Of a stretch of DNA of 64,000 nucleotides, positions 38,375 to 64,000 are shown in pieces. Every line of letters starts with the position of its first letter. Position 1 is the stretch's first letter. Location: contig OZ296648.1 of NCBI GenBank assembly GCA_965655095.1, forward strand, positions 54,374,001 through 54,438,000, in the 5' to 3' direction. Both the position numbers and the translations under genes were made by a program. The notes beneath the pieces are model-generated. The model did not search any database and had not been told where the DNA came from. It worked only from the letters and a program-made list of their open reading frames with translations. The DNA is from Haplodiscus bocki (Eukaryota).

Positions 38375-40129
38375 GACTACTCCGACGATGAACAACGCTG
38401 ATTTGCTGTAATTAATTTGAAATATGTGCGTTGACATTCGTTAACACAACCAAACAATGGCTGAAAGAGACACTCCAAGTAAAAGTAGATCACTACGGGA
38501 GAAAAGCAAAGTGATGCTATTCTTTAAATTCGACTTCAAGCAAAGTGAAAAGTTGCGACACAAGAACCTACCGAAGAACTTTTCGGTACCTTTTTCCATG
38601 AGACAAGAACGAGAACCGTGGATTCAATATAATGAAACTCTTGGCTATCGCCCACTTGCAATAAGTCCACGTCCATATCGCCCTCGGCCTGCTTCAAAAC
38701 TCATGGGTACAAAACATTTATCAATGCAGCGGAAAACAATCTTTCGGTAAAGTAGTGTTTCCAAGCGAGGCATTCGACCGAAATCCAACGGCAGTGAAAC
38801 TTTCCGTTCAAATATTGCGCCAGGATATTCCGTATCGGACATGTGTCGGGGTTTGATAGATTCCGATGACTGTCGCAGCAGGCGACAAAAAGGAAAGTTC
38901 CTGACGAAAACTTGTTTTATTGTAAATATGAGGAGTCCATATTGGTGATTTTGGTAGAAATGATGATCCACTTATCGGTTCCAAAGTAACAAATCTAACA
39001 TCAACATATTAAGTGGTCCAAAAACCAACAAATTCGGGACATCCGAAAACGAGTAGGGTAAGGAAAACTTTGGTTACGATTGCGAAAAATTTTGAATGTG
39101 ACACCCCAGCTTCATAAACGGTCTGCATGTGCTATCATAGAAAAGGTGCTTTTGTGTTTATATGGCGTGATAACATCAACTTTTGCCACATATTTTAAGT
39201 GCCGAGCAGTGTAATTTACTTTCTCCGCAACCAAACTAACGAAAGGGGACCTTAGATCCAAAATCATAGTAAGTATAACCCTTTGTTGGTTAAATCTTGT
39301 CAGTTGTTCAATTTTCTCAAACAGTATTTCTAATTGGAACGAATCTAGTTGCTTCACTGTCCTATTGCTTGACCGAAATCTTGCCGTACCAAAGTTTCAT
39401 CAGAGATAAGTTTCCGCTGGCATAGACAGCTCCGACCGTTGAATCAAAGTCAGACGAAAAGGATTAGTTCTCTTCGAATGCGTAATTGACTTTAGAAAAC
39501 GATATTCTTTCCCCCGCTTTGTTTACGCTTGAGATTTGATAACATGCTGCATCAACAACCACCTCTACCTGTCTCAGTTCAAACAACTCCACCATCTCTA
39601 TCTTTCCAGTCTAAATTGTTAGCCTTCTAAACTCTAAACTAAATTTTTAAAGTCTGCGTCAAATATGGCCTTGAGCCATACTCAAACTGGAACATCCACA
39701 TGTGTCCGACTGATCAAAATTTCCTCTAAGGCCCGCTTTAACTTACTTGTTCGGAACACCTTCTGTAGAATCAAAGTCAAACACGCGAAAATCGTTAAAT
39801 TGTTCTTGGAAGCTTCATTAAAGGCAGGAATGATTGAATTAGGAAATTGGCTGACTTTGGATCATTTACAAGACTTTACGAGGATGAGGGGCAACGAGAA
39901 TATGTAAAAATCCAGCCGATTTCTCACAACTCTAGGACCCCAGCTACGTGGACGAAAGTGCAAATTTCTTTTGCAGTCTGAATCAAGTTTACTAACGTTT
40001 CTAATTTTCTCCCCAACTGTATACCCTAAACTTCAACCTAGGCTTTTCTTTACCAAATGTGTTTTCAACGAAAGTATTTTTAGAAAAATTACCCAAAAAC
40101 TCGAAAATTAGCATACTAACGGGAATCAA

Positions 40130-40533
40130 ACAAAATGTTTGAGAAAAAAGCGGCAACTCTTTTTCAATGAAAAATGGGACACAGAGACAGTCAGCCCTAA
40201 ACACATAATGCGCAATAGAAACACAAGAGTCCACATAAATGGGAAGATACCTTTTGCAATGGTTCTTTCATGGGTTCAGACACTCCAAGTCGATAAATGG
40301 AAGACGGTCGCAAACGTGTTTGCATAGTGTGATAGGTAATACAAGTAGGTCTCAAAAAGGTATTTGTTGTTTCAGTTGCACAGAAGTAGTCGATGACTTC
40401 CTTGTTGGTCTGCTTTCTCTGAAATGACAATATTGAAAGTGTTAGGCTTACGAGCTAGCGGAAAACTTTTCCTGCATGTACTCCAAAAAACTTGCACTCC
40501 AAGTATTCGCACTTCATTATCATCGTTGTCAAA
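40130..40533 (-). pseudogene. Adenain-type protease pseudogene, copy 13
   Basis: Paralog of copy 12. Confidence 0.8.
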
Positions 40534-40563
40534 ACAATTTCGTCGTTCATCTTCGACAATTCA

Positions 40564-41687
40564 TTTCAGAATAGAAAAAGACTTTCTTTGAAAGTCTTTG
40601 GGGCGAAAAAAAAGGTTGAAGTACTTTTTACCAAGAAAAACATTGACGTACTGAATGCCAAAACGTTCTAGAAGAGCAATCTGAAAAGGATGCATTGGTA
40701 AACTCGTGATATAAGTAATCCTGCGATGTTTGCTGAGTACTGGTAGGATCCAACACCACCAGTAAATGATTTGAATGATGGCAATCCGCAAAACCATGAC
40801 CACGATTCCCAAAAGAAAGAGCTTCTAAAGAAGTAAAGTAGATCGTTTCGTCCGTATCTGTTATCACCTGTTCACCGGCGATGGGGCAGTCGTTACTAAA
40901 AACAGTGGTACTGCTCAACCCAAACTTTTGGCAGTGAAATAGGGTCTTTCGTGTAGCGCGAAGGAATCCAATAAATTTTGTCATTGCGAGAACTAATTTT
41001 CTTATAGGCTGTTCGTTGAAAATGCCTTCTTGGTGCCAATTATGTACATTAGAAGAAAGCAAAAAAGCTTTTGGTATTGTTTCAGTATAACTACACAATG
41101 CGTGCATCTTGGTGAGCGTAGTCTCAACGGAAATCTAAACAATATCTGCAACTATCAATTTGCCCACATACTATTTTGGTAAGGTATTGCTAAGTTTGTT
41201 ATCTTCTGCTTCAAAGTCAAAAATCAAGGTGATTCCCGGCCTGCCGCTCCGAAAAGATATTCGCAAAGCAATTCCACTCTAGATGTTTGTATCTGAAAAA
41301 ACATGTGCTACAAATTTTTGAAAAAAAAATAGAACCGATGAATTCTTGCCTTCCGTCTCTTTCTGTATGAAAGGTGATTCTGTGAATTAATAGGTTCCCA
41401 TTCCTAAATATTTCCCCTGGATTCCCCAAAAGTGTCATTAGGTTCCTGGTTGTGAGAAATTTCTGTTTCAGTAAAAGCTTTGTGTGCTTAATTTCCGTTT
41501 GCAGAGCAAGATTTTATCCAACTTGCCCTTAAAATGAAATGACAAAAAAACAACGAATGGAGCGCGTTTGTCGGAAATTCTGGCGTAATGCTGTTTGCAT
41601 CAGTTTTAGCGTTGTGAGGCAAATATGTACCATCTGATTTGCTATTTTTGCACTTTAGCTCCAGGTAAATGTTTTGTAGATCAACAA
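40564..41687 (-). pseudogene. Major capsid protein pseudogene, copy 13
   Basis: Fragment 40628-41107. Confidence 0.86.
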
Positions 41688-43227
41688 GACTACTTCGACG
41701 AGGAACAACGCTGATTTGCTGTAATTAATTGAAAAATGTGCGTTGACATTCGTTAACATAACCAAACAATGGCTGAACGAGAGACTCCAAGTAAAAGTAG
41801 ATCACTATGGGAGAAAACCAAACTGATGCTATTTTGTAAATTCGACTTCAAGCAAAGTGAAAAGTTGCCACACAAGAACCTACCGAAAAAGTTTTTGGTA
41901 CCTTTTTCCATGAGACAAGAACGAGAACCGTGGATTCAATATAATGAAACTCTTGGCTATCGCCCACTTGCAATAAGTCCACGTCCATATCGCCCTCGGC
42001 CTGCTTCAAAACTCATGGGTACAAAACATTTATCAATGCAGCGGAAAACAATCTTTCGGTAAAGTAGTGTTTCCAAGCGAGGCATTCGACCGAAATCCAA
42101 CGGCAGTGAAACTTTCCGTTCAAATATTGCGCCAGGACATTCCGAATCGGACATGCGTCGGAGTTTGATAGATTCCGATGACTGTCGCAGCAGGCGACAA
42201 AGAGGAAAGGTCCTGACGAAAACTTATGTTTTATTGTAAATATGAGGAGTCCATATTGGTGATTTTGGTAGAAATGATGATCCAAAAATTGGTTCAAAGG
42301 TAACAAATCTAACATCAACTCGGGACATCCGAAAACGAGTAGGGTAGGGAAAACTTTGGTTATGATTGCGAAAAATTTTGAATGTGAGACCCTAGCTTCA
42401 TAAACGGTCTGCAAGTGCTATCATAGAAAAGGTGCTTTTGTGTTTATATGGCGTGATAACATCAACTTTTGCCACATATTTTAAGTGCCGAGCAGTGTAA
42501 TTTACTTTCTCCGCAACCAAACTAACGAAAGGGGACCTTAGATCCAAAATCATAGGAAGTATAACCCTTTGTTGGTTAAATCTTGTCAGTTGTTTAAATT
42601 TCTCAAACAGTATTTCTAATTGGACCGAATCTAGTTGCTTCACTGTCCTATTGCTTGACCGAACTCTTGCCGTACCAAAGTTTCATCAGAAATAAGTTTT
42701 CGCTGGCATAGACAGCTCCGACCGTTGAATCAAAGTCAGATGAAAAGGATTAGTTCTCTTTGAATGCCTTGAGCCATACTCAAACTGGAACATCCACATG
42801 TGTCCGACTGATCAAAATTTCCTCTAAGGCCCGCTTTAACTCACTTGTTCGGAACACCTTCTGTAAAATCAAAGTCAAACACGCGAAAATCGTTAAATTG
42901 TTCTTGGAAGCTTCATTAAAGGCAGGAATGATTGAATTAGGAAATTGGCTGACTTTGGATCATTTACAAGACTTTACGAGGATGAGGGGCAACGAGAATA
43001 TGTAAAAATCCAGCCGATTTCTCACAACTCTAGGACCCCAGCTACGTGGACGAAAATGCAAATTTCTTTTGCAGTCTGAATCAAGTTTACTAACGTTTCT
43101 AATTTTCTCCCCAACTGTATACTCTAAACTTCAACCTAGGCTTTTCTTTACAAAATGTGTTTTCAACAAAAGAATTTTTAGAAAAATTACTCAAAAACTC
43201 GAAAATTAGCATACTAACGGGAATCAA

Positions 43228-43631
43228 ACAAAATGTTTGAGAAAAAAGCGGCAACTCTTTTTCAATGAAAAATGGGACACAGAGACAGTCAGCCCTAAAC
43301 ACATAATGCGCAATAGAAACACAAGAGTCCACATAAATGGGAAGATACCTTTTGCAATGGTTCTTTCATGGGTTCAGACACTCCAAGTCGATAAATGGAA
43401 GACGGTCGCAAACGTGTTTGCATAGTGTGATAGGTAATACAAGTAGGTCTCAAAAAGGTATTTGTTGTTTCAGTTGCACAGAAGTAGCCGATGACTTCCT
43501 TGTTGGTCTGCTTTCTCTGAAATGACAATATTGAAAGTGTTAGGCTTACGAGCTAGCGGAAAACTTTTCCTGCATGTACTCCAAAAAACTTGCACTCCAA
43601 GTATTCGCACTTCATTATCATCGTTGTCAAA
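43228..43631 (-). pseudogene. Adenain-type protease pseudogene, copy 14
   Basis: Paralog of copy 13. Confidence 0.8.
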
Positions 43632-43661
43632 ACAATTTCGTCGTTCATCTTCGACAATTCA

Positions 43662-44785
43662 TTTCAGAATAGAAAAAGACTTTCTTTGAAACTCTTTGGG
43701 GCGAAAAAAAAGGTTGAAGTACTTTTTACCAAGAAAAACATTGACGTACTGAATGCCAAAACGTTCTAGAAGAGCAATCTGAAAAGGATGCATTGGTAAA
43801 CTCGTGATATAAGTAATCCTGCGATGTTTGCTGAGTACTGGTAGGATCCAACACCACCAGTAAATGATTTGAATGATGGCAATCCGCAAAACCATGACCA
43901 CGATTCCCAAAAGAAAGAGCTTCTAAAGAAGTAAAGTAGATCGTTTCGTCCGTATCTGTTATCACCTGTTCACCGGCGATGGGGCAGTCGTTACTAAAAA
44001 CAGTGGTACTGCTCAACCCAAACTTTTGGCAGTGAAATAGGGTCTTTCGTGTAGCGCGAAGGAATCCAATAAATTTTGTCATTGCGAGAACTAATTTTCT
44101 TATAGGCTGTTCGTTGAAAATGCCTTCTTGGTGCCAATTATGTACATTAGAAGAAAGCAAAAAAGCTTTTGGTATTGTTTCAGTATAACTACACAATGCG
44201 TGCATCTTGGTGAGCGTAGTCTCAACGGAAATCTAAACAATATCTGCAACTATCAATTTGCCCACATACTATTTTGGTAAGGTATTGCTAAGTTTGTTAT
44301 CTTCTGCTTCAAAGTCAAAAATCAAGGTGATTCCCGGCCTGCCGCTCCGAAAAGATATTCGCAAAGCAATTCCACTCTAGATGTTTGTATCTGAAAAAAC
44401 ATGTGCTACAAATTTTTGAAAAAAAAATAGAACCGATGAATTCTTGCCTTCCGTCTCTTTCTGTATGAAAGGTGATTCTGTGAATTAATAGGTTCCCATT
44501 CCTAAATATTTCCCCTGGATTCCCCAAAAGTGTCATTAGGTTCCTGGTTGTGAGAAATTTCTGTTTCAGTAAAAGCTTTGTGTGCTTAATTTCCGTTTGC
44601 AGAGCAAGATTTTATCCAACTTGCCCTTAAATTGAAATGACAAAAAAACAACGAATGGAGCGCGTTTGTCGGAAATTCTGGCGTAATGCTGTTTGCATCA
44701 GTTTTAGCGTTGTGAGGCAAATATGTACCATCTGATTTGCTATTTTTGCACTTTAGCTCCAGGTAAATGTTTTGTAGATCAACAA
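43662..44785 (-). pseudogene. Major capsid protein pseudogene, copy 14
   Basis: Fragment 43726-44205. Confidence 0.86.
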
Positions 44786-46513
44786 GATTACTTCGACGAG
44801 GAACAACGCTGATTTGCTGTAATTAATTGAAAAATGTGCGTTGACATTCGTTAACATAACCAAACAATGGCTGAACGAGAGACTCCAAGTAAAAGTAGAT
44901 CACTATGGGAGAAAACCAAACTGATGCTATTTTGTAAATTCGACCTCAAGCAAAGTGAAAAGTTGCCACACAAGAACCTACCGAAAAAGTTTTTGGTACC
45001 TTTTTCCATGAGACAAGAACGAGAACCGTGGATTCAATATAATGAAACTCTTGGCTATCGCCCACTTGCAATAATTCCACGTCGATATCGCCCTCGGCCT
45101 GCTTCAATACTCATGGGTACAAAACATTTATCAATGCAGCGGAAAACAATCTTTCGGTAAAGTAGTGTTTCCAAGCGAGGCATTCGACCGAAATCCAACG
45201 GCAGTGAAACTTTCCGTTCAAATATTGCTCCACGACATTCCGAATCGGACATGTGTCGGAGTTTGATAGATTCCGATGACTGTCGCAGCAGGCGACAAAG
45301 AGGAAAGGTCCTGACGAAAACTTATGTTTTATTGTAAATATGAGGAGTCCATATTGGTGATTTTGGTAGAAATGATGATCCAAAAATCGGTTCAAATGTA
45401 ACAAATCTAACATCAACTCGGGACATCCGAAAACGAGTAGGGTAGGGAAAACTTTGGTTATGATTGCGAAAAATTTTGAATGTGAGACCCTAGCTTCATA
45501 AACGGTCTGCAAGTGCTATCATAGAAAAGGTGCTTTTGTGTTTATATGGCGTGATAACATCAACTTTTGCCACATATTTTAAGTGCCGAGCAGTGTAATT
45601 TACTTTCTCCGCAACCAAACTAACGAAAGGGGACCTTAGATCCAAAATCATAGGAAGTATAACCCTTTGTTGGTTAAATCTTGTCAGTTGTTTAAATTTC
45701 TCAAACAGTATTTCTAATTGGAACGAATCTAGTTGCTTCACTGTCCTATTGCTTGACCGAAATCTTGCCGTACCAAAGTTTCATCAGAGATAAGTTTCCG
45801 CTGGCATAGACAGCTCCGACCGTTGAATCAAAGTCAGACGAAAAGGATTAGTTCTCTTCGAATGCGTAATTGACTTTAGAAAACGATATTCTTTCCCCCG
45901 CTTTGTTTACGCTTGAGATTTGATAACATGCTGCATCAACAACCACCTCTACCTGTCTCAGTTCAAACAACTCCACCATCTCTATCTTTCCAGTCTAAAT
46001 TGTTAGCCTTCTAAACTCTAAACTAAATTTTTAAAGTCTGCGTCAAATATGGCCTTGAGCCATACTCAAACTGGAACATCCACATGTGTCCGACTGATCA
46101 AAATTTCCTCTAAGGCCCGCTTTAACTTACTTGTTCGGAACACCTTCTGTAGAATCAAAGTCAAACACGCGAAAATCGTTAAATTGTTCTTGGAAGCTTC
46201 ATTAAAGGCAGGAATGATTGAATTAGGAAATTGGCTGACTTTGGATCATTTACAAGACTTTACGAGGATGAGGGGCAACGAGAATATGTAAAAATCCAGC
46301 CGATTTCTCACAACTCTAGGACCCCAGCTACGTGGACGAAAGTGCAAATTTCTTTTGCAGTCTGAATCAAGTTTACTAACGTTTCTAATTTTCTCCCCAA
46401 CTGTATACCCTAAACTTCAACCTAGGCTTTTCTTTACCAAATGTGTTTTCAACGAAAGTATTTTTAGAAAAATTACCCAAAAACTCGAAAATTAGCATAC
46501 TAACGGGAATCAA

Positions 46514-46917
46514 ACAAAATGTTTGAGAAAAAAGCGGCAACTCTTTTTCAATGAAAAATGGGACACAGAGACAGTCAGCCCTAAACACATAATGCGCAAT
46601 AGAAACACAAGAGTCCACATAAATGGGAAGATACCTTTTGCAATGGTTCTTTCATGGGTTCAGACACTCCAAGTCGATAAATGGAAGACGGTCGCAAACG
46701 TGTTTGCATAGTGTGATAGGTAATACAAGTAGGTCTCAAAAAGGTATTTGTTGTTTCAGTTGCACAGAAGTAGTCGATGACTTCCTTGTTGGTCTGCTTT
46801 CTCTGAAATGACAATATTGAAAGTGTTAGGCTTACGAGCTAGCGGAAAACTTTTCCTGCATGTACTCCAAAAAACTTGCACTCCAAGTATTCGCACTTCA
46901 TTATCATCGTTGTCAAA
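46514..46917 (-). pseudogene. Adenain-type protease pseudogene, copy 15
   Basis: Equals copy 13 at +6384. Confidence 0.8.
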
Positions 46918-46947
46918 ACAATTTCGTCGTTCATCTTCGACAATTCA

Positions 46948-48071
46948 TTTCAGAATAGAAAAAGACTTTCTTTGAAAGTCTTTGGGGCGAAAAAAAAGGT
47001 TGAAGTACTTTTTACCAAGAAAAACATTGACGTACTGAATGCCAAAACGTTCTAGAAGAGCAATCTGAAAAGGATGCATTGGTAAACTCGTGATATAAGT
47101 AATCCTGCGATGTTTGCTGAGTACTGGTAGGATCCAACACCACCAGTAAATGATTTGAATGATGGCAATCCGCAAAACCATGACCACGATTCCCAAAAGA
47201 AAGAGCTTCTAAAGAAGTAAAGTAGATCGTTTCGTCCGTATCTGTTATCACCTGTTCACCGGCGATGGGGCAGTCGTTACTAAAAACAGTGGTACTGCTC
47301 AACCCAAACTTTTGGCAGTGAAATAGGGTCTTTCGTGTAGCGCGAAGGAATCCAATAAATTTTGTCATTGCGAGAACTAATTTTCTTATAGGCTGTTCGT
47401 TGAAAATGCCTTCTTGGTGCCAATTATGTACATTAGAAGAAAGCAAAAAAGCTTTTGGTATTGTTTCAGTATAACTACACAATGCGTGCATCTTGGTGAG
47501 CGTAGTCTCAACGGAAATCTAAACAATATCTGCAACTATCAATTTGCCCACATACTATTTTGGTAAGGTATTGCTAAGTTTGTTATCTTCTGCTTCAAAG
47601 TCAAAAATCAAGGTGATTCCCGGCCTGCCGCTCCGAAAAGATATTCGCAAAGCAATTCCACTCTAGATGTTTGTATCTGAAAAAACATGTGCTACAAATT
47701 TTTGAAAAAAAAATAGAACCGATGAATTCTTGCCTTCCGTCTCTTTCTGTATGAAAGGTGATTCTGTGAATTAATAGGTTCCCATTCCTAAATATTTCCC
47801 CTGGATTCCCCAAAAGTGTCATTAGGTTCCTGGTTGTGAGAAATTTCTGTTTCAGTAAAAGCTTTGTGTGCTTAATTTCCGTTTGCAGAGCAAGATTTTA
47901 TCCAACTTGCCCTTAAAATGAAATGACAAAAAAACAACGAATGGAGCGCGTTTGTCGGAAATTCTGGCGTAATGCTGTTTGCATCAGTTTTAGCGTTGTG
48001 AGGCAAATATGTACCATCTGATTTGCTATTTTTGCACTTTAGCTCCAGGTAAATGTTTTGTAGATCAACAA
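46948..48071 (-). pseudogene. Major capsid protein pseudogene, copy 15
   Basis: Equals copy 13 at +6384. Confidence 0.86.
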
Positions 48072-49611
48072 GACTACTTCGACGAGGAACAACGCTGATT
48101 TGCTGTAATTAATTGAAAAATGTGCGTTGACATTCGTTAACATAACCAAACAATGGCTGAACGAGAGACTCCAAGTAAAAGTAGATCACTATGGGAGAAA
48201 ACCAAACTGATGCTATTTTGTAAATTCGACTTCAAGCAAAGTGAAAAGTTGCCACACAAGAACCTACCGAAAAAGTTTTTGGTACCTTTTTCCATGAGAC
48301 AAGAACGAGAACCGTGGATTCAATATAATGAAACTCTTGGCTATCGCCCACTTGCAATAAGTCCACGTCCATATCGCCCTCGGCCTGCTTCAAAACTCAT
48401 GGGTACAAAACATTTATCAATGCAGCGGAAAACAATCTTTCGGTAAAGTAGTGTTTCCAAGCGAGGCATTCGACCGAAATCCAACGGCAGTGAAACTTTC
48501 CGTTCAAATATTGCGCCAGGACATTCCGAATCGGACATGCGTCGGAGTTTGATAGATTCCGATGACTGTCGCAGCAGGCGACAAAGAGGAAAGGTCCTGA
48601 CGAAAACTTATGTTTTATTGTAAATATGAGGAGTCCATATTGGTGATTTTGGTAGAAATGATGATCCAAAAATTGGTTCAAAGGTAACAAATCTAACATC
48701 AACTCGGGACATCCGAAAACGAGTAGGGTAGGGAAAACTTTGGTTATGATTGCGAAAAATTTTGAATGTGAGACCCTAGCTTCATAAACGGTCTGCAAGT
48801 GCTATCATAGAAAAGGTGCTTTTGTGTTTATATGGCGTGATAACATCAACTTTTGCCACATATTTTAAGTGCCGAGCAGTGTAATTTACTTTCTCCGCAA
48901 CCAAACTAACGAAAGGGGACCTTAGATCCAAAATCATAGGAAGTATAACCCTTTGTTGGTTAAATCTTGTCAGTTGTTTAAATTTCTCAAACAGTATTTC
49001 TAATTGGACCGAATCTAGTTGCTTCACTGTCCTATTGCTTGACCGAACTCTTGCCGTACCAAAGTTTCATCAGAAATAAGTTTTCGCTGGCATAGACAGC
49101 TCCGACCGTTGAATCAAAGTCAGATGAAAAGGATTAGTTCTCTTTGAATGCCTTGAGCCATACTCAAACTGGAACATCCACATGTGTCCGACTGATCAAA
49201 ATTTCCTCTAAGGCCCGCTTTAACTCACTTGTTCGGAACACCTTCTGTAAAATCAAAGTCAAACACGCGAAAATCGTTAAATTGTTCTTGGAAGCTTCAT
49301 TAAAGGCAGGAATGATTGAATTAGGAAATTGGCTGACTTTGGATCATTTACAAGACTTTACGAGGATGAGGGGCAACGAGAATATGTAAAAATCCAGCCG
49401 ATTTCTCACAACTCTAGGACCCCAGCTACGTGGACGAAAATGCAAATTTCTTTTGCAGTCTGAATCAAGTTTACTAACGTTTCTAATTTTCTCCCCAACT
49501 GTATACTCTAAACTTCAACCTAGGCTTTTCTTTACAAAATGTGTTTTCAACAAAAGAATTTTTAGAAAAATTACTCAAAAACTCGAAAATTAGCATACTA
49601 ACGGGAATCAA

Positions 49612-50015
49612 ACAAAATGTTTGAGAAAAAAGCGGCAACTCTTTTTCAATGAAAAATGGGACACAGAGACAGTCAGCCCTAAACACATAATGCGCAATAG
49701 AAACACAAGAGTCCACATAAATGGGAAGATACCTTTTGCAATGGTTCTTTCATGGGTTCAGACACTCCAAGTCGATAAATGGAAGACGGTCGCAAACGTG
49801 TTTGCATAGTGTGATAGGTAATACAAGTAGGTCTCAAAAAGGTATTTGTTGTTTCAGTTGCACAGAAGTAGCCGATGACTTCCTTGTTGGTCTGCTTTCT
49901 CTGAAATGACAATATTGAAAGTGTTAGGCTTACGAGCTAGCGGAAAACTTTTCCTGCATGTACTCCAAAAAACTTGCACTCCAAGTATTCGCACTTCATT
50001 ATCATCGTTGTCAAA
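49612..50015 (-). pseudogene. Adenain-type protease pseudogene, copy 16
   Basis: Equals copy 14 at +6384. Confidence 0.8.
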
Positions 50016-50045
50016 ACAATTTCGTCGTTCATCTTCGACAATTCA

Positions 50046-51169
50046 TTTCAGAATAGAAAAAGACTTTCTTTGAAACTCTTTGGGGCGAAAAAAAAGGTTG
50101 AAGTACTTTTTACCAAGAAAAACATTGACGTACTGAATGCCAAAACGTTCTAGAAGAGCAATCTGAAAAGGATGCATTGGTAAACTCGTGATATAAGTAA
50201 TCCTGCGATGTTTGCTGAGTACTGGTAGGATCCAACACCACCAGTAAATGATTTGAATGATGGCAATCCGCAAAACCATGACCACGATTCCCAAAAGAAA
50301 GAGCTTCTAAAGAAGTAAAGTAGATCGTTTCGTCCGTATCTGTTATCACCTGTTCACCGGCGATGGGGCAGTCGTTACTAAAAACAGTGGTACTGCTCAA
50401 CCCAAACTTTTGGCAGTGAAATAGGGTCTTTCGTGTAGCGCGAAGGAATCCAATAAATTTTGTCATTGCGAGAACTAATTTTCTTATAGGCTGTTCGTTG
50501 AAAATGCCTTCTTGGTGCCAATTATGTACATTAGAAGAAAGCAAAAAAGCTTTTGGTATTGTTTCAGTATAACTACACAATGCGTGCATCTTGGTGAGCG
50601 TAGTCTCAACGGAAATCTAAACAATATCTGCAACTATCAATTTGCCCACATACTATTTTGGTAAGGTATTGCTAAGTTTGTTATCTTCTGCTTCAAAGTC
50701 AAAAATCAAGGTGATTCCCGGCCTGCCGCTCCGAAAAGATATTCGCAAAGCAATTCCACTCTAGATGTTTGTATCTGAAAAAACATGTGCTACAAATTTT
50801 TGAAAAAAAAATAGAACCGATGAATTCTTGCCTTCCGTCTCTTTCTGTATGAAAGGTGATTCTGTGAATTAATAGGTTCCCATTCCTAAATATTTCCCCT
50901 GGATTCCCCAAAAGTGTCATTAGGTTCCTGGTTGTGAGAAATTTCTGTTTCAGTAAAAGCTTTGTGTGCTTAATTTCCGTTTGCAGAGCAAGATTTTATC
51001 CAACTTGCCCTTAAATTGAAATGACAAAAAAACAACGAATGGAGCGCGTTTGTCGGAAATTCTGGCGTAATGCTGTTTGCATCAGTTTTAGCGTTGTGAG
51101 GCAAATATGTACCATCTGATTTGCTATTTTTGCACTTTAGCTCCAGGTAAATGTTTTGTAGATCAACAA
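50046..51169 (-). pseudogene. Major capsid protein pseudogene, copy 16
   Basis: Equals copy 14 at +6384. Confidence 0.86.
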
Positions 51170-52899
51170 GATTACTTCGACGAGGAACAACGCTGATTTG
51201 CTGTAATTAATTGAAAAATGTGCGTTGACATTCGTTAACATAACCAAACAATGGCTGAACGAGAGACTCCAAGTAAAAGTAGATCACTATGGGAGAAAAC
51301 CAAACTGATGCTATTTTGTAAATTCGACCTCAAGCAAAGTGAAAAGTTGCCACACAAGAACCTACCGAAAAAGTTTTTGGTACCTTTTTCCATGAGACAA
51401 GAACGAGAACCGTGGATTCAATATAATGAAACTCTTGGCTATCGCCCACTTGCAATAATTCCACGTCGATATCGCCCTCGGCCTGCTTCAATACTCATGG
51501 GTACAAAACATTTATCAATGCAGCGGAAAACAATCTTTCGGTAAAGTAGTGTTTCCAAGCGAGGCATTCGACCGAAATCCAACGGCAGTGAAACTTTCCG
51601 TTCAAATATTGCTCCACGACATTCCGAATCGGACATGTGTCGGAGTTTGATAGATTCCGATGACTGTCGCAGCAGGCGACAAAGAGGAAAGGTCCTGACG
51701 AAAACTTATGTTTTATTGTAAATATGAGGAGTCCATATTGGTGATTTTGGTAGAAATGATGATCCAAAAATCGGTTCAAATGTAACAAATCTAACATCAA
51801 CTCGGGACATCCGAAAACGAGTAGGGTAAGGAAAACTTTGGTTATGATTGCGAAAAATTTTGAATGTGAGACCCTAGCTTCATAAACGGTCTGCAAGTGC
51901 TATCATAGGAAAGGTGCTTTTGTGTTTATATGGCGTGATAACATCAACTTTTGCCACATATTTTAAGTGCCGAGCAGTGTAATTTACTTTCTCCGCAACC
52001 AAACTAACGAAAGGGGACCTTAGATCCAAAATCATAGGAAGTAAAACCCTTTGTTGGTTAAATCTTGTCAGTTGTTTAAATTTCTCAAACAGTATTTCTA
52101 ATTGGACCGAATCTAGTTGCTTCACTGTCCTATTGCTTGACCGAACTCTTGCCGTACCAAAGTTTCATCAGAAATAAGTTTTCGCTGCCATAGACAGCTC
52201 CGACCGTTGAATCAAAGTCAGATGAAAAGGATTAGTTCTCTTTGAATGCGTAATTGACTTCAGAAAATGATACTCTTTCCCCCGCTTTATTTACGTTTGA
52301 GATTTGATAACATGTTGCATCGAGAACCACCTCTACTTGCCTCAGTTCAGTCATTTCCACTATCTCTATGTTTCCAGTCTTAACTATTAGCCTTCTAAAG
52401 TCTAAATTAAATATTTGAAGTTTGCGTCAAATATGGCCTTGAGCCATACTCGAACTGGAACATCCACATGTGTCCGATTGATCAAATTTTCATCTGAGGC
52501 CCGCTTTAACTCAGACTTGTTCAGAACATCTTCTATAGAATCAAAGTCAAACACGCGAAAATCGTTCAATTGTTCTTGGAAGCTTCATAAAAGGCAGGAA
52601 TGATTGAATTACGAAATTGGCTGACTTTGCATCATTTACAAGACTTTAGGAGGAGGAGGGGCAAAGAGAATATGTAAAAATCCAGCCGATTTCTTACAAC
52701 TCTAGGACCCCAGCTACTTGGAAGAAAGTGCAAATTTCGTTTGCAATCTGAATCAAGTTTACTAACGTTTCTAATTCTCTCCCCAACTGTATACCCTAAA
52801 CTTCAACCTAGGCTTTCCTTTACCAAATGTGTTTTCAACAAAAGTATTTTTAGAAAAATTACCCAAAAACTCGAAAACTAGCACACTAACGGGAATCAA

Positions 52900-57789: not shown

Positions 57790-59302
57790 GACTACTTCGA
57801 CGATGAACAACGCTGATTTGCTGTAATTATTTGAAAAATGTGCGTTGACATTCGTTAACATAACCAAACAATGGCTGAACGAGAGACTCCAAGTAAAAGT
57901 AGATCACTATGGGAGAAAAGCAAAGTGATGCTATTTTTTAAATTCGACTTCAAGCAAAGTGAAAAGGTGCGACACAAGATCCTACCGAAGAATTTTTCGG
58001 TACCTTTTTCTATGAGACAAGAATGAGAACCGTGGATTAAATATAAAGAAACTCTTGGCTATCGCCCACTTGCAATAAGTCCATGTCAATATCGCCCTCG
58101 GCCTGCTTCAATACTCATGGGTACTCATTTTGGTAGAAATGACGATCCACATATCGGTTCAAATGTAACAAATCTAACATCAACATATTAAGTGGTCCAA
58201 AAACCAAAAAGTTCGGGACATCCGAAAACGAGTAGGGTAAAGAAAACTTTGGCTACGATTGCGAAAAATTTTGAATGTGAGACCCTAGCTTCATAAACGG
58301 TCTGCATGTGCTATCGTGGAAAAGGTGCTTTTATTGTTTATATGGCGTGATAACATCAATTTTTGCCAAACATTTTAATTTCCGAGCAAGGTTTTTTGCT
58401 TTCTCCCTAACCAAACTAACGAAAAGAGACCATAGATCCAAATTCAAAGGAAGCAAAACCCTTTGTTGGCTAAATCTTATCATTTGTTTAATTTTCTCAA
58501 ACATTATTTCTAATTGGAGCGACTACAGTTGCTTCATTGTCCTATTGCTTGACCGAACTCTTGCTGTACCAAAACTTGGTTAGAATTATGTTTCCGCTGG
58601 CATAGACAACTCCGACCGTTGCTTCAAAGTCAGATATAAAAGATGAGTTCTCTTCGAATGCGTAATTGAGTTTCGAAAATGATATTCTTTCCCCCGCTTT
58701 GTTTACGTTTGAGAATTGATAACATGCTGTATGAACAACCACCTCTACCTGTCTCAGTTCAACCAACTCCATCTTTCCAGTCTAAATTGTTAGCCTTCTA
58801 AAGTCTAAACAAAATTTTTGAAGTCTGCGTCCAATATGGCTTTCAGCCATATTCAAACTGGAACATCAGGATGTGTCCGTCTGAACAAATTTTGCTCTGA
58901 GGCCCTCTTTCACCCAGACTTGTTCAGAACATCTTCTATAGAATCAAAGTCAAACACGCGAAAATCGTTCAATTGTTCTTGGAAGCTTCATAAAAGGCAG
59001 GAATGATTGAATTAGGAAAATGGCTGACTTTGCATCATTTACAAGACTTCACGAGGAAGAGGGGCGAAGAGAATATGTGGAAATCCAGCCGATTTCTCAC
59101 AACTCTAGGAACCCAGCTACGTGCACGAAAGAGCAAATTTCGTTTGCAATCTGAATCATGATTAATAACGTTTCTAATTCTCTCCCCAACTGCATACTCC
59201 AAACTTCAACCTAGGCTTTTCTTTAAAAAATGTGTTTTCAACAGAAGAACTTTTAGAAAAATTACTCAAAAATTCGAGAATTAGCATACAAACGGGAATC
59301 AA

Positions 59303-59706
59303 ACAAAATGTCTGAGAAAAAAGCGGCAACTCTTTTTCAATGAAGTATGGGACACAGAGACAGTCATCCCTAAACACATAATGCGCAATAGAAACACAAG
59401 AGTCCACATAAATGGGAAGATACCTTTTGCAATGGTTCTTTCATGGGTTCAGACACTCCAAGTCGATAAATGCAAGACGGTCGCAAACGTGTTTGCATGA
59501 TGTCATAGGTAATACAAGTAGGTCCCAAACAGGTATTTGTTGTTTCAGTTGCACAGAAGTAGCCGATGACTTCCTTGTTGATCTGCTTTCTCTGAAATGA
59601 CAATATTGAAAGTGATAGACTTACGAGCTAGCGGAAAACTTTTTCTGCATGTACTCCAAAAAACTTGCACTCCAAGTATTCGCACTTCAATATCATCGTT
59701 GTCAAA
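59303..59706 (-). pseudogene. Adenain-type protease pseudogene, copy 19
   Basis: ..EPLQKVSSHLCGLLCFY. Confidence 0.8.
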
Positions 59707-60864
59707 TCAATTTCGTCGGTCATCTTCGAGAATTCATTCTAGAGTATAAAAAGACTTTCTTTGAAACTCTTTGGGGCGAAAAGAAAAAATGGTTGTAGGA
59801 TTTTTTACCAAGAAAAACATTCACGTATTGAATGCCAAAACGTTCTAGAAGAGCAATCTGAAAAAGATGCATTGGTAAACCCGTGATATAGGTAATCCTG
59901 TGATGCTTGCTGAGTACTGGTAGGATCCAACACCACCAGGAAATGATTTGAATGATGGCAATCAGCAAAACCATGACCACGATTCCCAAACGAAAGAGCT
60001 TCTAAAGAAGTAAAGTAGATCGTTTCGTCCGTATCTGTTGTCAACGGTTCACCAGCGATGGGGCAGTCGTTACTAAAAACAGTGGTACTGCTCAACCCCA
60101 ACTTTTGGCAGTGAAATCGGGTCGTTCGTTTAAGGCGAAGGAATCCAATAATTTTTGCCATTGCGAGAACTAATTTTCTTATAGGCTGTTCGTTGAAAAT
60201 GCCTTGTTGGTGCCGATTATGTGCATTAGAAGAAAGGAAAAAAGCTTTTGGTATTGTTTCAGTTTAACTACACAATGCTGGCATCTTGGTAAGCGTAGTC
60301 TCAACGGAAATGTGAACGATGTCTGCAACTATCGCTTTGCCCAAATACTAATTTGCTAAGGTATTACCAAGTTTGTTATTTTCTGCTTCAATGTCAAAAA
60401 TCAAGGTGATTCCCGGCCTGCGGCTCTGAAAAGATATTCTTAAAGCAACTCCACTCTAGATGTTTGTTTCTGAAAAAAACATGTGCTACAATTTTTTGAA
60501 AGAAAATTAGAACCGATGAATTCTTGCTTTCCGTCTCCTTCTGTATGAAAGGTGATCCTGTGAATTAATTGGTTCCTTTGATTCCTAAAAATTTCCCCTG
60601 GATTCCCTTAAAGTGTCATTAGGTTCCTGGTTGTGAGAAACTTCTATTTCAGTAAACCCTTTGTGTGCTTAATTTCCGTTTGCAGAGCAAGATTTTATCC
60701 AAATTGCCCTTATAATGCTATCGCAAAAAACGAATGGAGCGCGCTTCTCAAAAATACTGGCGTAAGGCTGTTTGCATCAGTTTCAGCGTTATGAGCCAAA
60801 TATGTACCATCTGTTTCGTCAATTTTGCACTTTAATTCCAGGTGAATGTTTTGTAGATCAACAA

Positions 60865-61511
60865 GACGACCGGCTACCACCGGCATTTTTTGTGCATTCC
60901 CAATTTGGTACAGATGCAATTTTAGAAGATAAAATCGTTTTTTCCTCGAAAAAAAACACTTTCTCTTCATCACATTTTCAAATTTTTCCAACGTTCAAAG
61001 TTTTCTGTTTTTTTTCCAAAAAACCTCATAATGAGGTCGGAAACGAGATTTTCAAGAATCATTACCATTTGATACTCACTCTGCAGCAAATTCACGAGCT
61101 TTATCGATTGAAAAGAACTCGAGGAATTTCTCAAAACAAACCCATCTATTTCCTAAAAATACGATAAAATTTGATCGTTTTGAGGATTCTTACTATCCCA
61201 GTCGCATTTTACGGCAAATTTGCTACCTTTGGCGATTCTTAAGAAACGCTAGATTTCTTTTGAAAAACCCATTATTGTTTTCTAGAAAACCCCAAATTTT
61301 GAACGTTTTGAGAATTCTGACCAATTCAATCGCATTCTACGGAAAATTTCCTACAGCTTGATGGAAAAATAATTTCACGTTCAGATGTGAACAAAAACGG
61401 CAATGTTGGCGTGAACGCAATTGGCCAACATCGGGTTGAAAAAACGTCAGAAATGTTGCATCTGAGAGGAAGATTTCGCTTCCATATTTATTTTATGGCG
61501 CGAAATAAAAA
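60865..61511. mobile_element. ~650-bp non-coding insertion (unclassified non-autonomous element)
   Basis: Interrupts MCP exactly between GATCAACAA and AGTTGGTTCGATC (uninterrupted copies read GATCAATAAAATTGGTTCAATC). AT-rich, with two internal ~125-bp degenerate repeats and an A-rich right end. Confidence 0.8.
61131..61365 (+). repeat. Two degenerate ~125-bp direct repeats inside the insertion
   Basis: aaatttgatcgttttgaggattcttactatcccagtcgcatttacggcaaatttgctac versus aaattttgaacgttttgagaattctgaccaattcaatcgcattctacggaaaatttcctac. Confidence 0.75.
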
Positions 61512-61671
61512 AGTTGGTTCGATCAGCTGCAACTCTGAACTCCAGTGTTCGACAATTGGAGAATGAACGGGGTCAAACTTGCTCGAAGTATGTATCAAAA
61601 GCCATCAGCAGAATACGTTCTTGGAGTATAATATCGAGTGAGCTAAGACGCCTATACAAACAAAACAGCAG

Positions 61672-62021
61672 CCAACATTTTTGACTCTTGTAAAAAACCG
61701 ACCGACTTCTCTGTCACTAAAAATTGCCTTCAATGACTTTGCGTTCTCATTTTGGTGATCCACCCACTGTCTTCTCGACAAGATTTCGTACTGCTGACTT
61801 TGCAGCTTGTCCCCTTGTCTGACGCAACTTCAACCAATTCTGGTACATTTCGCGCCAACAACTGTGCCAATTGATTTGACTGCGTTGAGCAGAAAAACTT
61901 TGGCGAGCGGTACAGCTACCCGATCAACACCTACTGCTATTGACCCAAAACCACTTCTTGTCTGTCTCACGTGACGATTGAATCGACGTAAAACAGCTTG
62001 TTGCGGAAAACAATGCTCTAT
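61672..62021 (-). pseudogene. Small basic Polinton/adintovirus core-like gene (Q-x-G-x-G motif) pseudogene
   Basis: (ATA)EHCFPQQAVLRRFNRHVRQTRSGFGSIAVGVDRVAVPLAKVFLLNAVKSIGT../ELVEVASDKGQAAKSAVRNLVEKTVGG..FFTRVKN. Resembles the 'YxxQ...F.G..RQRG.G.G...R...P' gene lying between minor and major capsid genes in animal Polintons. Confidence 0.65.
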
Positions 62022-62024
62022 TTT

Positions 62025-62860
62025 AAAACTTATTTGGATTTTCTTGTTGAAGCAACCCTTCCAGTACCAACAAACGGAACTTTTTGACCAGTAAATATAA
62101 CAAACTAACGAGGTTCATCAATGCTGCTGGTAAATAGCTTTTTGATATGGAGTTCCGGAAAAATTCGATAAATTGTTGTTAATTTAATTTCAAGGCTGCC
62201 GTTCGACACCCTTCTTTGATTATCACGGATCCGCAACAACGGCGACTACACATGTGCAACATGTTGTTCTTCAATGATATGCGTGTTTGCAAAAAACATG
62301 TTTTTTCCAGCCGTAAGATGTGGAGGATATTCATTGAAAATTGATTGATTTTTGTTGCCATATTCATTATGGTTGCCCACAAGGAAACCTCCTTCTCAGT
62401 GCTTGTCCGGCTCGCTTTTGAACTCCGAGACATCTAGAATACTGCGGTCAGAGACACTAACGCCATAAGTTTCCCGAAACACAAGAAACACTTGCCCTTT
62501 GTCGTTGACTGGACCCAACTCGAAAGGTTTAAAGAACGGATTGCCACTTCAATCACTTCCAGGATGTCTTCTGCTGTTTAGTATTCACCAGCAGACAATT
62601 CCAAATTGTTTTACCAGCACTCGCGCGATACCACAAGAATCTGATGTGTAACATGTTTGCATTGCACATTCGGAGTGTTTGTGAAAAAGTCGTTTGTTGC
62701 AATGTTCTCAAAGCAGGTAGTGAATATGATTTCAGTCAAAACCACACGCCGATCATCTAGTTGAATTGCTTTTGCAGGCATATAGCGAAAGACAGCCATT
62801 GTGTTTTCGCGGTAAACATTGAACTGGTAGATTCAAAAAGAATGGTGAATTCAACTTTTT
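62025..62860 (-). pseudogene. Minor capsid protein (penton-like) pseudogene
   Basis: N-terminus EFTILFESTSSM/NVYRENTMAVFRYMPAKAIQLDDRRVVLTEIIF (cf. F...L.S..S...F..N....F...L...I.L.G.W.VAL.EI.F). C-terminus YPPHLTAGKNMFFANTHIIEEQHVAHV*SPLLRI..TGQKVPFVGTGRV (cf. Y.DII..Q.VG....PLLR..G..IPF..G). Confidence 0.82.
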
Positions 62861-63300
62861 ACTTTTGTTATTTAGGGTTCCAGAGAATATCCTTTGATTC
62901 CTCCTTCCTCGTCCTTCAAATTATAAAATGGTGGATTGGCTAAGGCAAATTTAGTGAAGCTCGTCAGTAAAATTTGGTTTGTAGCCTTGTGTGCAAAGCA
63001 AATCTTTTTTCATTATTCGAAATTTATTACCAAAGGCGAACATTGGGTCGCTGACAGACCTAACCGACTGATCTGCAGTTAGAGAAAAAAATGCGATTCA
63101 ACCTGCCTTGCAACTTTGTTTGGCAATAAGGGAGTAGCACGGTTAACTCTGCAATTGATGGTGTCCAGAAATGACCGCAATCTGTCCATTTAATGGTACG
63201 TTCATTCGTTTTCTAAATGCTTGTGTATATTATTTTTAGGCGACCGAACAAAAAGCTCAGCAAATGCAAATTTTTCTTCACTAGTTGCTGTTTGTGTCTA
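62860..63300 (-). pseudogene. Retroviral-type (rve/c-integrase) integrase pseudogene, C-terminal half
   Basis: KFAFAELFVRSPKNNIHKHLENE*TYH*MDRLRSFLDTINCRVNRATPLLPNKV..PMFAFGNKFRIMKKDLLCTQGYKPNFTDE../NPPFYNLKDEEGGIKGYSLEP. Matches the Polinton integrase AER..RTLK, PKF..GD.VRI..F.KGY..N.T.E and P.TY.L.D..G..I.G.FY..EL motifs. Confidence 0.82.
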
Positions 63301-64000
63301 CAAATCATCCTCTGTAATCGGACCACTTCAACGAATGATTCACAAAATCTTTTTAAGCCTTCCCATGGTTTTGAATTTCCTTTTTCGCTTGCAAAAGTTG
63401 CACAAAGTCTCCCTTCATGCTTCCGCGGCGCTTTGGGTGTAAGTTTATTGAATTAGAGTTTCGGTGGAGACAAAACATTTGTCTTGGCCACTTTTGGTTT
63501 GACAATCTGCATGGGTTTGCGACTAGTTATGACAAAAACCTGAGTTTCCCTAAAAGTAATTGAAAGTCTGGTTCATGCAACTATTTTCTCTTTTGATGCC
63601 AGTTGTAAAGAAAAAAGTTGCTTTAGACGACTTGGGACGGTGTTCAACCGTCAGCATTTTTTAAAAAATTTCAAAATCTGCATTTTCCTGGAAGTTCCAC
63701 AGCATCGGCTCAGACTTCTCGAGGCGATGAGGTTAAAGCATTGACAAAGCACGCAAAACTCTTGACCCTACGTTTTATGGAACCGCAGCTTCCTTAACTT
63801 CGTCTGATTTTGTTTTTGATTTTGAGTTTTTTCTATCCGTAGGTTGTCGTTGGAGAAAAATTAGAAATTGCGATTTTTCTCTTCCGCTATTGTTGGATCA
63901 TCTAAAACTTCCGGTATTTCTGGCTGTTTTTTAAAATGTATATTTTTTTAGTATCAAAACAAATTATTGTTCACTGATTGCCATAAATGACAAAAGCAGG

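Follow-up and report, generated by a model that had tools for sequence, protein, structure and literature searches.

We found that a 64,000-nt stretch of the Haplodiscus bocki genome (contig OZ296648.1, positions 54,374,001 to 54,438,000 of the forward strand; hereafter the window) lies within a decayed Polinton, a 3.3-kb inner segment of which is repeated 24 times. The array very probably formed by duplication of this segment in situ after the element had decayed, followed by unequal exchange. The gene order of the element is ATPase-INT-penton-basic gene-MCP(1-22)-[MCP(23-end)-protease-pPolB 5' remnant]x24-pPolB 3' part. Coordinates are counted from the first letter of the window; negative values lie to its left and values above 64,000 to its right.

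Remnants of the parent element on both sides of the array

At 61,614-63,978 the right arm carries minus-strand remnants of four genes of one Polinton, all in single copy: an integrase, a penton, a small basic gene and, of the MCP, the first 22 codons. Pfam was silent on the window's own reading frames (0 of 6 matched, with X at stops), and the proteins of a less-decayed sister Polinton family in the same genome were therefore used as references. Stop-free fragments of the window's Polinton family were likewise not matched by Pfam (0 of 7). Each reference was aligned to the window in a frameshift-aware manner, with eight DNA shuffles per protein as a control, and the shuffled scores ranged from 27 to 56. 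The integrase scored 307 (63,978-62,857; best tblastn row 6e-18), the minor capsid 469 (62,852-62,039; 1e-45), the small basic gene 208 (62,009-61,674; 6e-19), and the MCP start 89 (61,678-61,474; 3e-10). An earlier note, made from the sequence alone, had read integrase, minor capsid, core-like and MCP remnants in this order, and they are indeed present and abutting on the minus strand. It had bounded the fragments at 63,300, whereas the integrase begins near 63,978. The single-copy state that it had assigned to them holds from 61,614 onward; in a self-comparison of the window it fails only at 61,507-61,613, a piece that recurs in all 16 left-type units of the array described below.

We took the defining Polinton gene set from passages of 10.1101/697771 and PMC11161782. 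The integrase remnant (62,857-63,978, minus strand) keeps residues 1-181 and about 358-508 of a 508-aa reference, and the catalytic core (reference residues ~182-357) has been deleted near 63,300-63,420, with ~120 bp left between the flanking parts. The reference carries the Pfam rve domain (E 1.7e-8), and the RVE integrase of Polintons/Mavericks was identified here through homology to this rve-bearing protein, with no direct Pfam match. The minor capsid (penton) remnant (62,033-62,858, minus strand) contains several stops and frameshifts. The model of its reference (pLDDT 83.2) folds like the pentons of mavirus, Sputnik and adenovirus (mavirus penton E 1.5e-9; VIA Z 12.9, rmsd 8.1, 236 aligned), and the top five rows are viral capsids with Z of 12.2-13.7. 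A single jelly-roll minor capsid was thus identified by the reference fold together with window fragments matching the family profile (6 of 95 fragments, E 1e-15 to 7e-3).

The small basic gene lies between penton and MCP, in the PW slot (61,674-62,021, minus strand; profile E 7e-18). Its reference contains 24.6% K+R and 2.4% D+E, and 38 of 43 homologues carry an xGxG motif that we take to be like a protease site. This composition and this motif are leads that hint at a core or DNA-condensing protein. The gene has no Pfam family, its 83 homologues are unnamed save one 'hypothetical', and its Atlas clusters are also labelled 'hypothetical'. The first ~22 MCP codons (61,614-61,678, minus strand) are single copy and absent from every repeat unit, with left-type units aligning from codon 23. 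One read contig, found in three runs of one sample (possibly the assembled sample), spans 61,420-64,000 without differences. A 1,217-nt contig from run X4, of a second sample, matches the window only at 61,521-61,785, and no match on the stretch is listed for its first 952 letters; it is possibly another allele at the site of a 640-bp insertion.

The rest of the element had been predicted in the flanks, and both the ATPase (right) and pPolB (left) were found there. Past the window's right edge we found a 102-aa gene, the ATPase (64,329-64,923) and three further small genes, as well as a terminus at ~67,548 similar to those of dispersed copies. The packaging ATPase (A32/FtsK) was identified by tblastn to its reference (2e-28), which itself has a weak Pox_A32 match (E 2.9e-4, below the Pfam cut-off). 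To the left of the array lies the 3' half of pPolB (-15,563 to -16,949), followed by a second exon-like part to -17,641, in a broken state. The reference of this protein-primed DNA polymerase B carries Pfam DNA_pol_B_2 (E 1.5e-14), with tblastn values to 5e-26, and the left arm runs collinear to a copy with a single unit on contig C2 (66-76% identity). The MCP reference is a double jelly roll (pLDDT 84.7) whose best matches are the capsids of Sputnik, PBCV-1, iridovirus and mavirus (E 2e-17), and the window MCP copy is ~40% identical to it. The reference of the adenain/Ulp1-type protease falls in Atlas Peptidase_C5 clusters (score 0.98) and matches another Polinton protease (BLASTP 6e-8), with no direct Pfam match.

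Matching TIRs and a 6-bp TSD had also been predicted. Only the right terminus was found, with no partner in 150 kb leftward, and no 6-bp TSD was found for the parent element, whose left end would fall at a 200-N assembly gap (about -20,100 to -20,300). The gap lies at the expected place and adjoins an 84-bp-period subterminal repeat, which two other copies that we tested have as well. In the sister family, AGTAGT ends, 72-77-bp TIRs and 6-bp TSDs were seen in three of three copies read. Beyond the gap, the translation looks Ty3/Gypsy-like by eye, and a gag-pol-like frame set lies at window coordinates 91,900-94,000. A tRNA-like stretch was noticed near the family terminus (window 67,354-67,471) and at both ends of two copies, with motifs reminiscent of RNA polymerase III A and B boxes. 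A tRNA identity was rejected: ARAGORN called none at 21 loci, Rfam gave no match, and a double change was seen in one of 20 predicted pairs. A ~190-bp GT..AG stretch, probably a spliceosomal intron, interrupts the sister-family pPolB immediately before the YxDTDS motif, and the N-terminal part of this pPolB contains C2H2 zinc fingers and an endonuclease VII-like match.

The single-copy arm and the MCP copies had been assumed to come from one element lineage, and the distances support this. All six dispersed copies fetched match the arm and the MCP collinearly. Measured to the same eight dispersed copies, the arm (mean p distance 0.305) and the first-unit MCP (0.322) are equally distant, and the copies differ among themselves by 0.27. 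A more distant Polinton group matches the window family weakly. The genome, 1.5 Gb in size, is rich in Polintons (at least 126 capsid matches and at least 98 polymerase matches), many of them with open frames. Named homologues of the reference capsid protein come solely from the acoel Convolutriloba macropyga, at 57-58% identity, which points to an animal host.

Passages of PMC8097293 describe a conserved module of integrase - minor capsid - PW - major capsid - protease in vertebrate Mavericks, so the synteny itself is ordinary. The element resembles Polintons/Mavericks (Polintoviricetes) in this five-gene order and, by the one end found, in what looks like an AGT-type terminus, and all its genes lie on one strand, as the same passages report for Xenopus tropicalis Mavericks. 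Unlike Mavericks, the window copy is fossil: the core of its integrase is deleted, its left end was not found and it contains a 24-fold internal repeat. It measures at least 87 kb, against a reported range of 12.7-24.6 kb for intact Mavericks.

Architecture of the array

The array consists of 24 MCP-bearing units arranged head to tail over ~77 kb, with a spacing of 2,989-3,454 bp and a left end near -15,900. It was missed by Tandem Repeats Finder, which has a period limit of 500. The repeat boundary (61,613) falls within the capsid gene, at codon ~23 of the MCP, and every unit therefore lacks the beginning of this gene; the other end of the unit lies inside pPolB. Of the formula INT-mCP-core-[MCP-PRO-B-C]n proposed in the earlier note, the INT-mCP-core order was retained and the unit had to be redrawn, since its first MCP codon is number ~23 and its far end falls within pPolB, part of which thus belongs to the repeat.

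The first unit starts at the outer array edge with MCP codons ~23-57 (61,507-61,613, minus strand). The genes had been thought to run directly into this unit, but a high-copy, unclassified dispersed repeat of ~640 bp (60,860-61,506; left edge placed by loose read ends at 60,860) has inserted there and splits the MCP. The rest of the MCP follows in a broken state (59,720-60,859; alignment, with the double jelly roll given by the reference fold), then an adenain-type protease remnant (59,312-59,726, by alignment to the reference) and a pPolB remnant spanning reference residues ~348-516 (57,807-58,244), all on the minus strand. Every unit closes with such a pPolB remnant. The sides of the insertion are joined directly in two dispersed copies and in the left-type units. 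A first look at the ~640-bp repeat gave 6567 candidates, and the 40 that were scored had 73-83% identity. The repeat contains a degenerate ~128-bp internal repeat and has no clear terminal inverted repeat.

We found that the units fall into two sub-arrays, both on the minus strand. The left-type sub-array occupies 1-35,055, with 11 junctions in the window and five more plus the end unit leftward to about -15,900, and a single MCP-pPolB junction is common to all 16 of its units. The right-type sub-array (35,056-60,864) has eight units and a second junction. At its seven internal junctions the 107-bp edge piece is absent, ~11 nt corresponding to the first letters of the inserted repeat are kept, and the joined ends overlap by 2 nt. 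The right-type units were therefore likely derived from the end unit after the insertion. The first, left-type junction has no clear microhomology and is too decayed to read, so the initiating mechanism stays a proposal.

A tree of 23 aligned units, which omits unit 1,281 for its short length and in which three deletion-bearing left units are poorly aligned, placed all 23 in one clade against four dispersed copies. Units 14,724 and 34,951 are mosaic: their first 1.2 kb is left-type, and much of the 0.9 kb that follows is right-like. The control unit 7,999 is left-type throughout. A higher-order dimer at 39,313-51,828 (minus strand), with 6,132 bp identical at a 6,384-bp offset, is either a very recent duplication or an assembly error. 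In four of four runs, the read depth summed over the unit was higher than the depth of the single-copy arm by a factor of 6-8; this is not a copy number, is compatible with eight right-type units, and does not decide between the two readings of the dimer. With its clade, subfamilies, mosaics and dimer, the array is a transposon-derived macrosatellite, that is, a head-to-tail repeat of an element segment under concerted evolution.

In-situ amplification of an internal Polinton segment, which the earlier note had favoured, is borne out by the presence of the parent on both sides, by the way both arms line up with one-unit copies, among them that on C2, and by the one junction in the 16 left-type units. 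The same anatomy, one junction with parent arms on both sides, would be predicted if the segment had been excised as a circle, copied by rolling-circle replication by the host or by a Polinton polymerase in trans, and re-inserted at the parent by homologous recombination, and the many Polinton polymerase frames in the genome could have supplied the enzyme. A single burst of this kind predicts equal distances between units, however, and we found two subfamilies, a second junction, mosaics and clusters of neighbours. This suggested that a circle is a very unlikely origin for the array, and that it could account for single steps. Insertion of a whole-genome concatemer, or selection for extra capsid genes, is refuted by the anatomy and has next to no chance of being correct. 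The unit does contain MCP and protease, and MCP is present in three of the four other arrays that we describe below (found with an MCP query), but INT, penton, ATPase, termini and the beginning of the MCP are all missing from the units in the window's array, every unit is broken, and on contig C3 it is the ATPase region that occurs 13 times in an array, without any capsid gene.

Probable decay before amplification

We compared the lesions of the units with those of dispersed copies. The MCP stop at reference codon 122 was found in 24 of 24 units versus one of 11 dispersed copies, and that at codon 229 in all 24 units, both end units included, versus none of nine. MCP frameshifts near 156 and 194 were present in 23 and 19 of the 24 units versus none and two of 11 dispersed copies, and 18 of 20 units had frameshifts of the protease near 67 and 92, versus one and none of 10 dispersed copies. 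The dN/dS of the array MCP was 0.95 in the left sub-array, 0.88 in the right and 0.79 between them, with the three codon positions changing alike, compared with 0.57 among dispersed copies and 0.17 from the sister family to dispersed copies. The common stops in all 24 units and the near-neutral evolution indicate that the segment was most likely duplicated after decay. The value of 0.79 is slightly below 1 and was counted against this explanation. Shared lesions date the ancestor of the surviving units and not strictly the first duplication, and an earlier duplication could be masked by homogenisation.

The two sub-arrays are separated by dN 0.21, roughly half the distance between the array and dispersed copies (dN 0.40-0.43). 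The edge piece at 61,507-61,613 (107 bp) shares 87% identity with 11 left-type units and 70.5% with nine dispersed copies, and this greater closeness to the units places the first duplication near the left-right split and not at the insertion of the element. The array units lie farther from the dispersed copies than the latter lie from each other (0.32), which may reflect an older insertion or faster mutation within the array. Like the failure to find a left TIR and a TSD, this was counted against post-decay duplication.

These data also bear on the possibility that a defective genome with repeated inner segments arose by template switching during Polinton replication, integrated in that form and was homogenised later. 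Protein-primed polymerases are able to make defective genomes, and homogenisation is active in the array. Tandem and mosaic Polinton-like genomes are moreover reported in passages of 10.64898/2026.10.13.758929. Against this origin, the stops are common to all 24 units, both end units too; the edge piece, shielded by the inserted repeat, differs by 13% from the units but by 30% from the dispersed copies; and arrays on C6 and C8 are 98.7-100% identical within and yet have common lesions. A defective genome is thus largely refuted and highly improbable as the source of the array.

Under post-decay duplication in situ, a Polinton would have inserted and then decayed, and a non-homologous repair or template-switch event would have produced the first duplication about halfway through the neutral history of the element. 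The 640-bp repeat would then have inserted into the end unit, from which a second rearrangement would have founded the right-type units. Unequal crossing-over and gene conversion would then have expanded the array locally, most recently in the 6.4-kb dimer. We infer that these two processes caused the growth from the mosaics, the two subfamilies and the dimer. The array is likely without coding function.

Known satellites and other arrays in the genome

The growth of satellites from transposons is a process of a known kind. Tetris of Drosophila and the Cassandra arrays are reportedly satellites that arose from tandem arrays inside transposons. Likewise, passages of PMC7004042 describe LTR-derived satellites of Lathyrus that grew from such arrays. 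As in these cases, an internal part of a mobile element has expanded in place to a long array with subfamilies. Their monomer is a pre-existing short internal repeat, whereas the monomer here is a 3.0-3.5-kb coding segment with breakpoints in two genes and a capsid-encoding donor. Tandem integration of whole Polinton/PLV genomes is reported in passages of 10.64898/2026.10.13.758929, and shares with our array the head-to-tail virus-like DNA in a chromosome and the repeated morphogenetic modules. The cases in those passages are whole or different elements side by side, whereas here a sub-genomic piece of one element was repeated after decay. We found no report of a macrosatellite from an internal Polinton segment in the open-access literature, as searched by listings. 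The array is an unusually complete record of satellite birth: the two arms of the parent can be read in it, as can the junction that founded it, an insertion that is dated, the two subfamilies and the mosaic units.

We searched the genome for other arrays. Among the other 120 loci listed, three had MCP matches no more than 10 kb apart, and among 141 listed, one had ATPase matches within 10 kb of each other. Once fetched, all four proved to be internal repeats flanked by parent Polinton genes, giving five array loci in total with 2 to 24 units. The locus on C6 (about 2.10-2.13 Mb) has six copies of INT 3'-MCP-protease, that on C8 (about 77.98 Mb) has a nested internal repeat in three copies, and that on C5 (about 49.3 Mb) has two and a part copies of 6.2 kb. 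These three arrays are 98.7-100% identical within each locus and are thus recent repeats. On C3 (about 112.91-112.93 Mb), a 1.6-kb segment with the ATPase occurs 13 times in tandem, and the rest of the Polinton follows; the units are 88-100% alike and of alternating types. Because this array has no capsid gene, the choice of capsid genes elsewhere is not special. Lesions common to the copies were found in C6 (two, in five of five aligned copies out of six), C8 (seven, in two of two out of three) and C3 (one, in nine of 11 tested out of 13). In C6 and C8, such lesions combined with near identity of the units indicate that duplication took place long after decay. Tandem capsid genes in assemblies therefore need not signal viral concatemers or domestication, and such arrays inflate counts of Polinton genes.

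The recurrence of arrays at five Polinton loci raises the question of whether Polintons are special in this respect. Dead Polintons in this genome could be hotspots of multi-kb internal amplification, with Polinton replication proteins as drivers in trans, or with the repeats retained as small-RNA sources. We consider this unlikely; if true, it would be a route from an endogenous DNA virus to a macrosatellite and to antiviral memory. That the host keeps the array in the window as a small-RNA source against active Polintons, or as structural heterochromatin, would fit the five loci and the many open-frame Polintons in the genome. It is quite unlikely, given that the amplified segment differs from locus to locus, and that the units have only ~40% protein identity to the closest open-frame family, with saturated synonymous sites, which is probably too divergent for small-RNA pairing. 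The near-neutral coding evolution speaks neither for nor against such retention.

As a rough control, we examined the unrelated 640-bp repeat and found a tandem spacing of 1.83 kb at one of 36 loci, a rate similar to that of Polintons. This counts against retention by the host and favours a general chromosomal process over a Polinton-specific one. At C6:46,959,640-46,965,750, four copies of the 640-bp repeat are spaced 1.83 kb apart, suggesting a non-Polinton tandem array.
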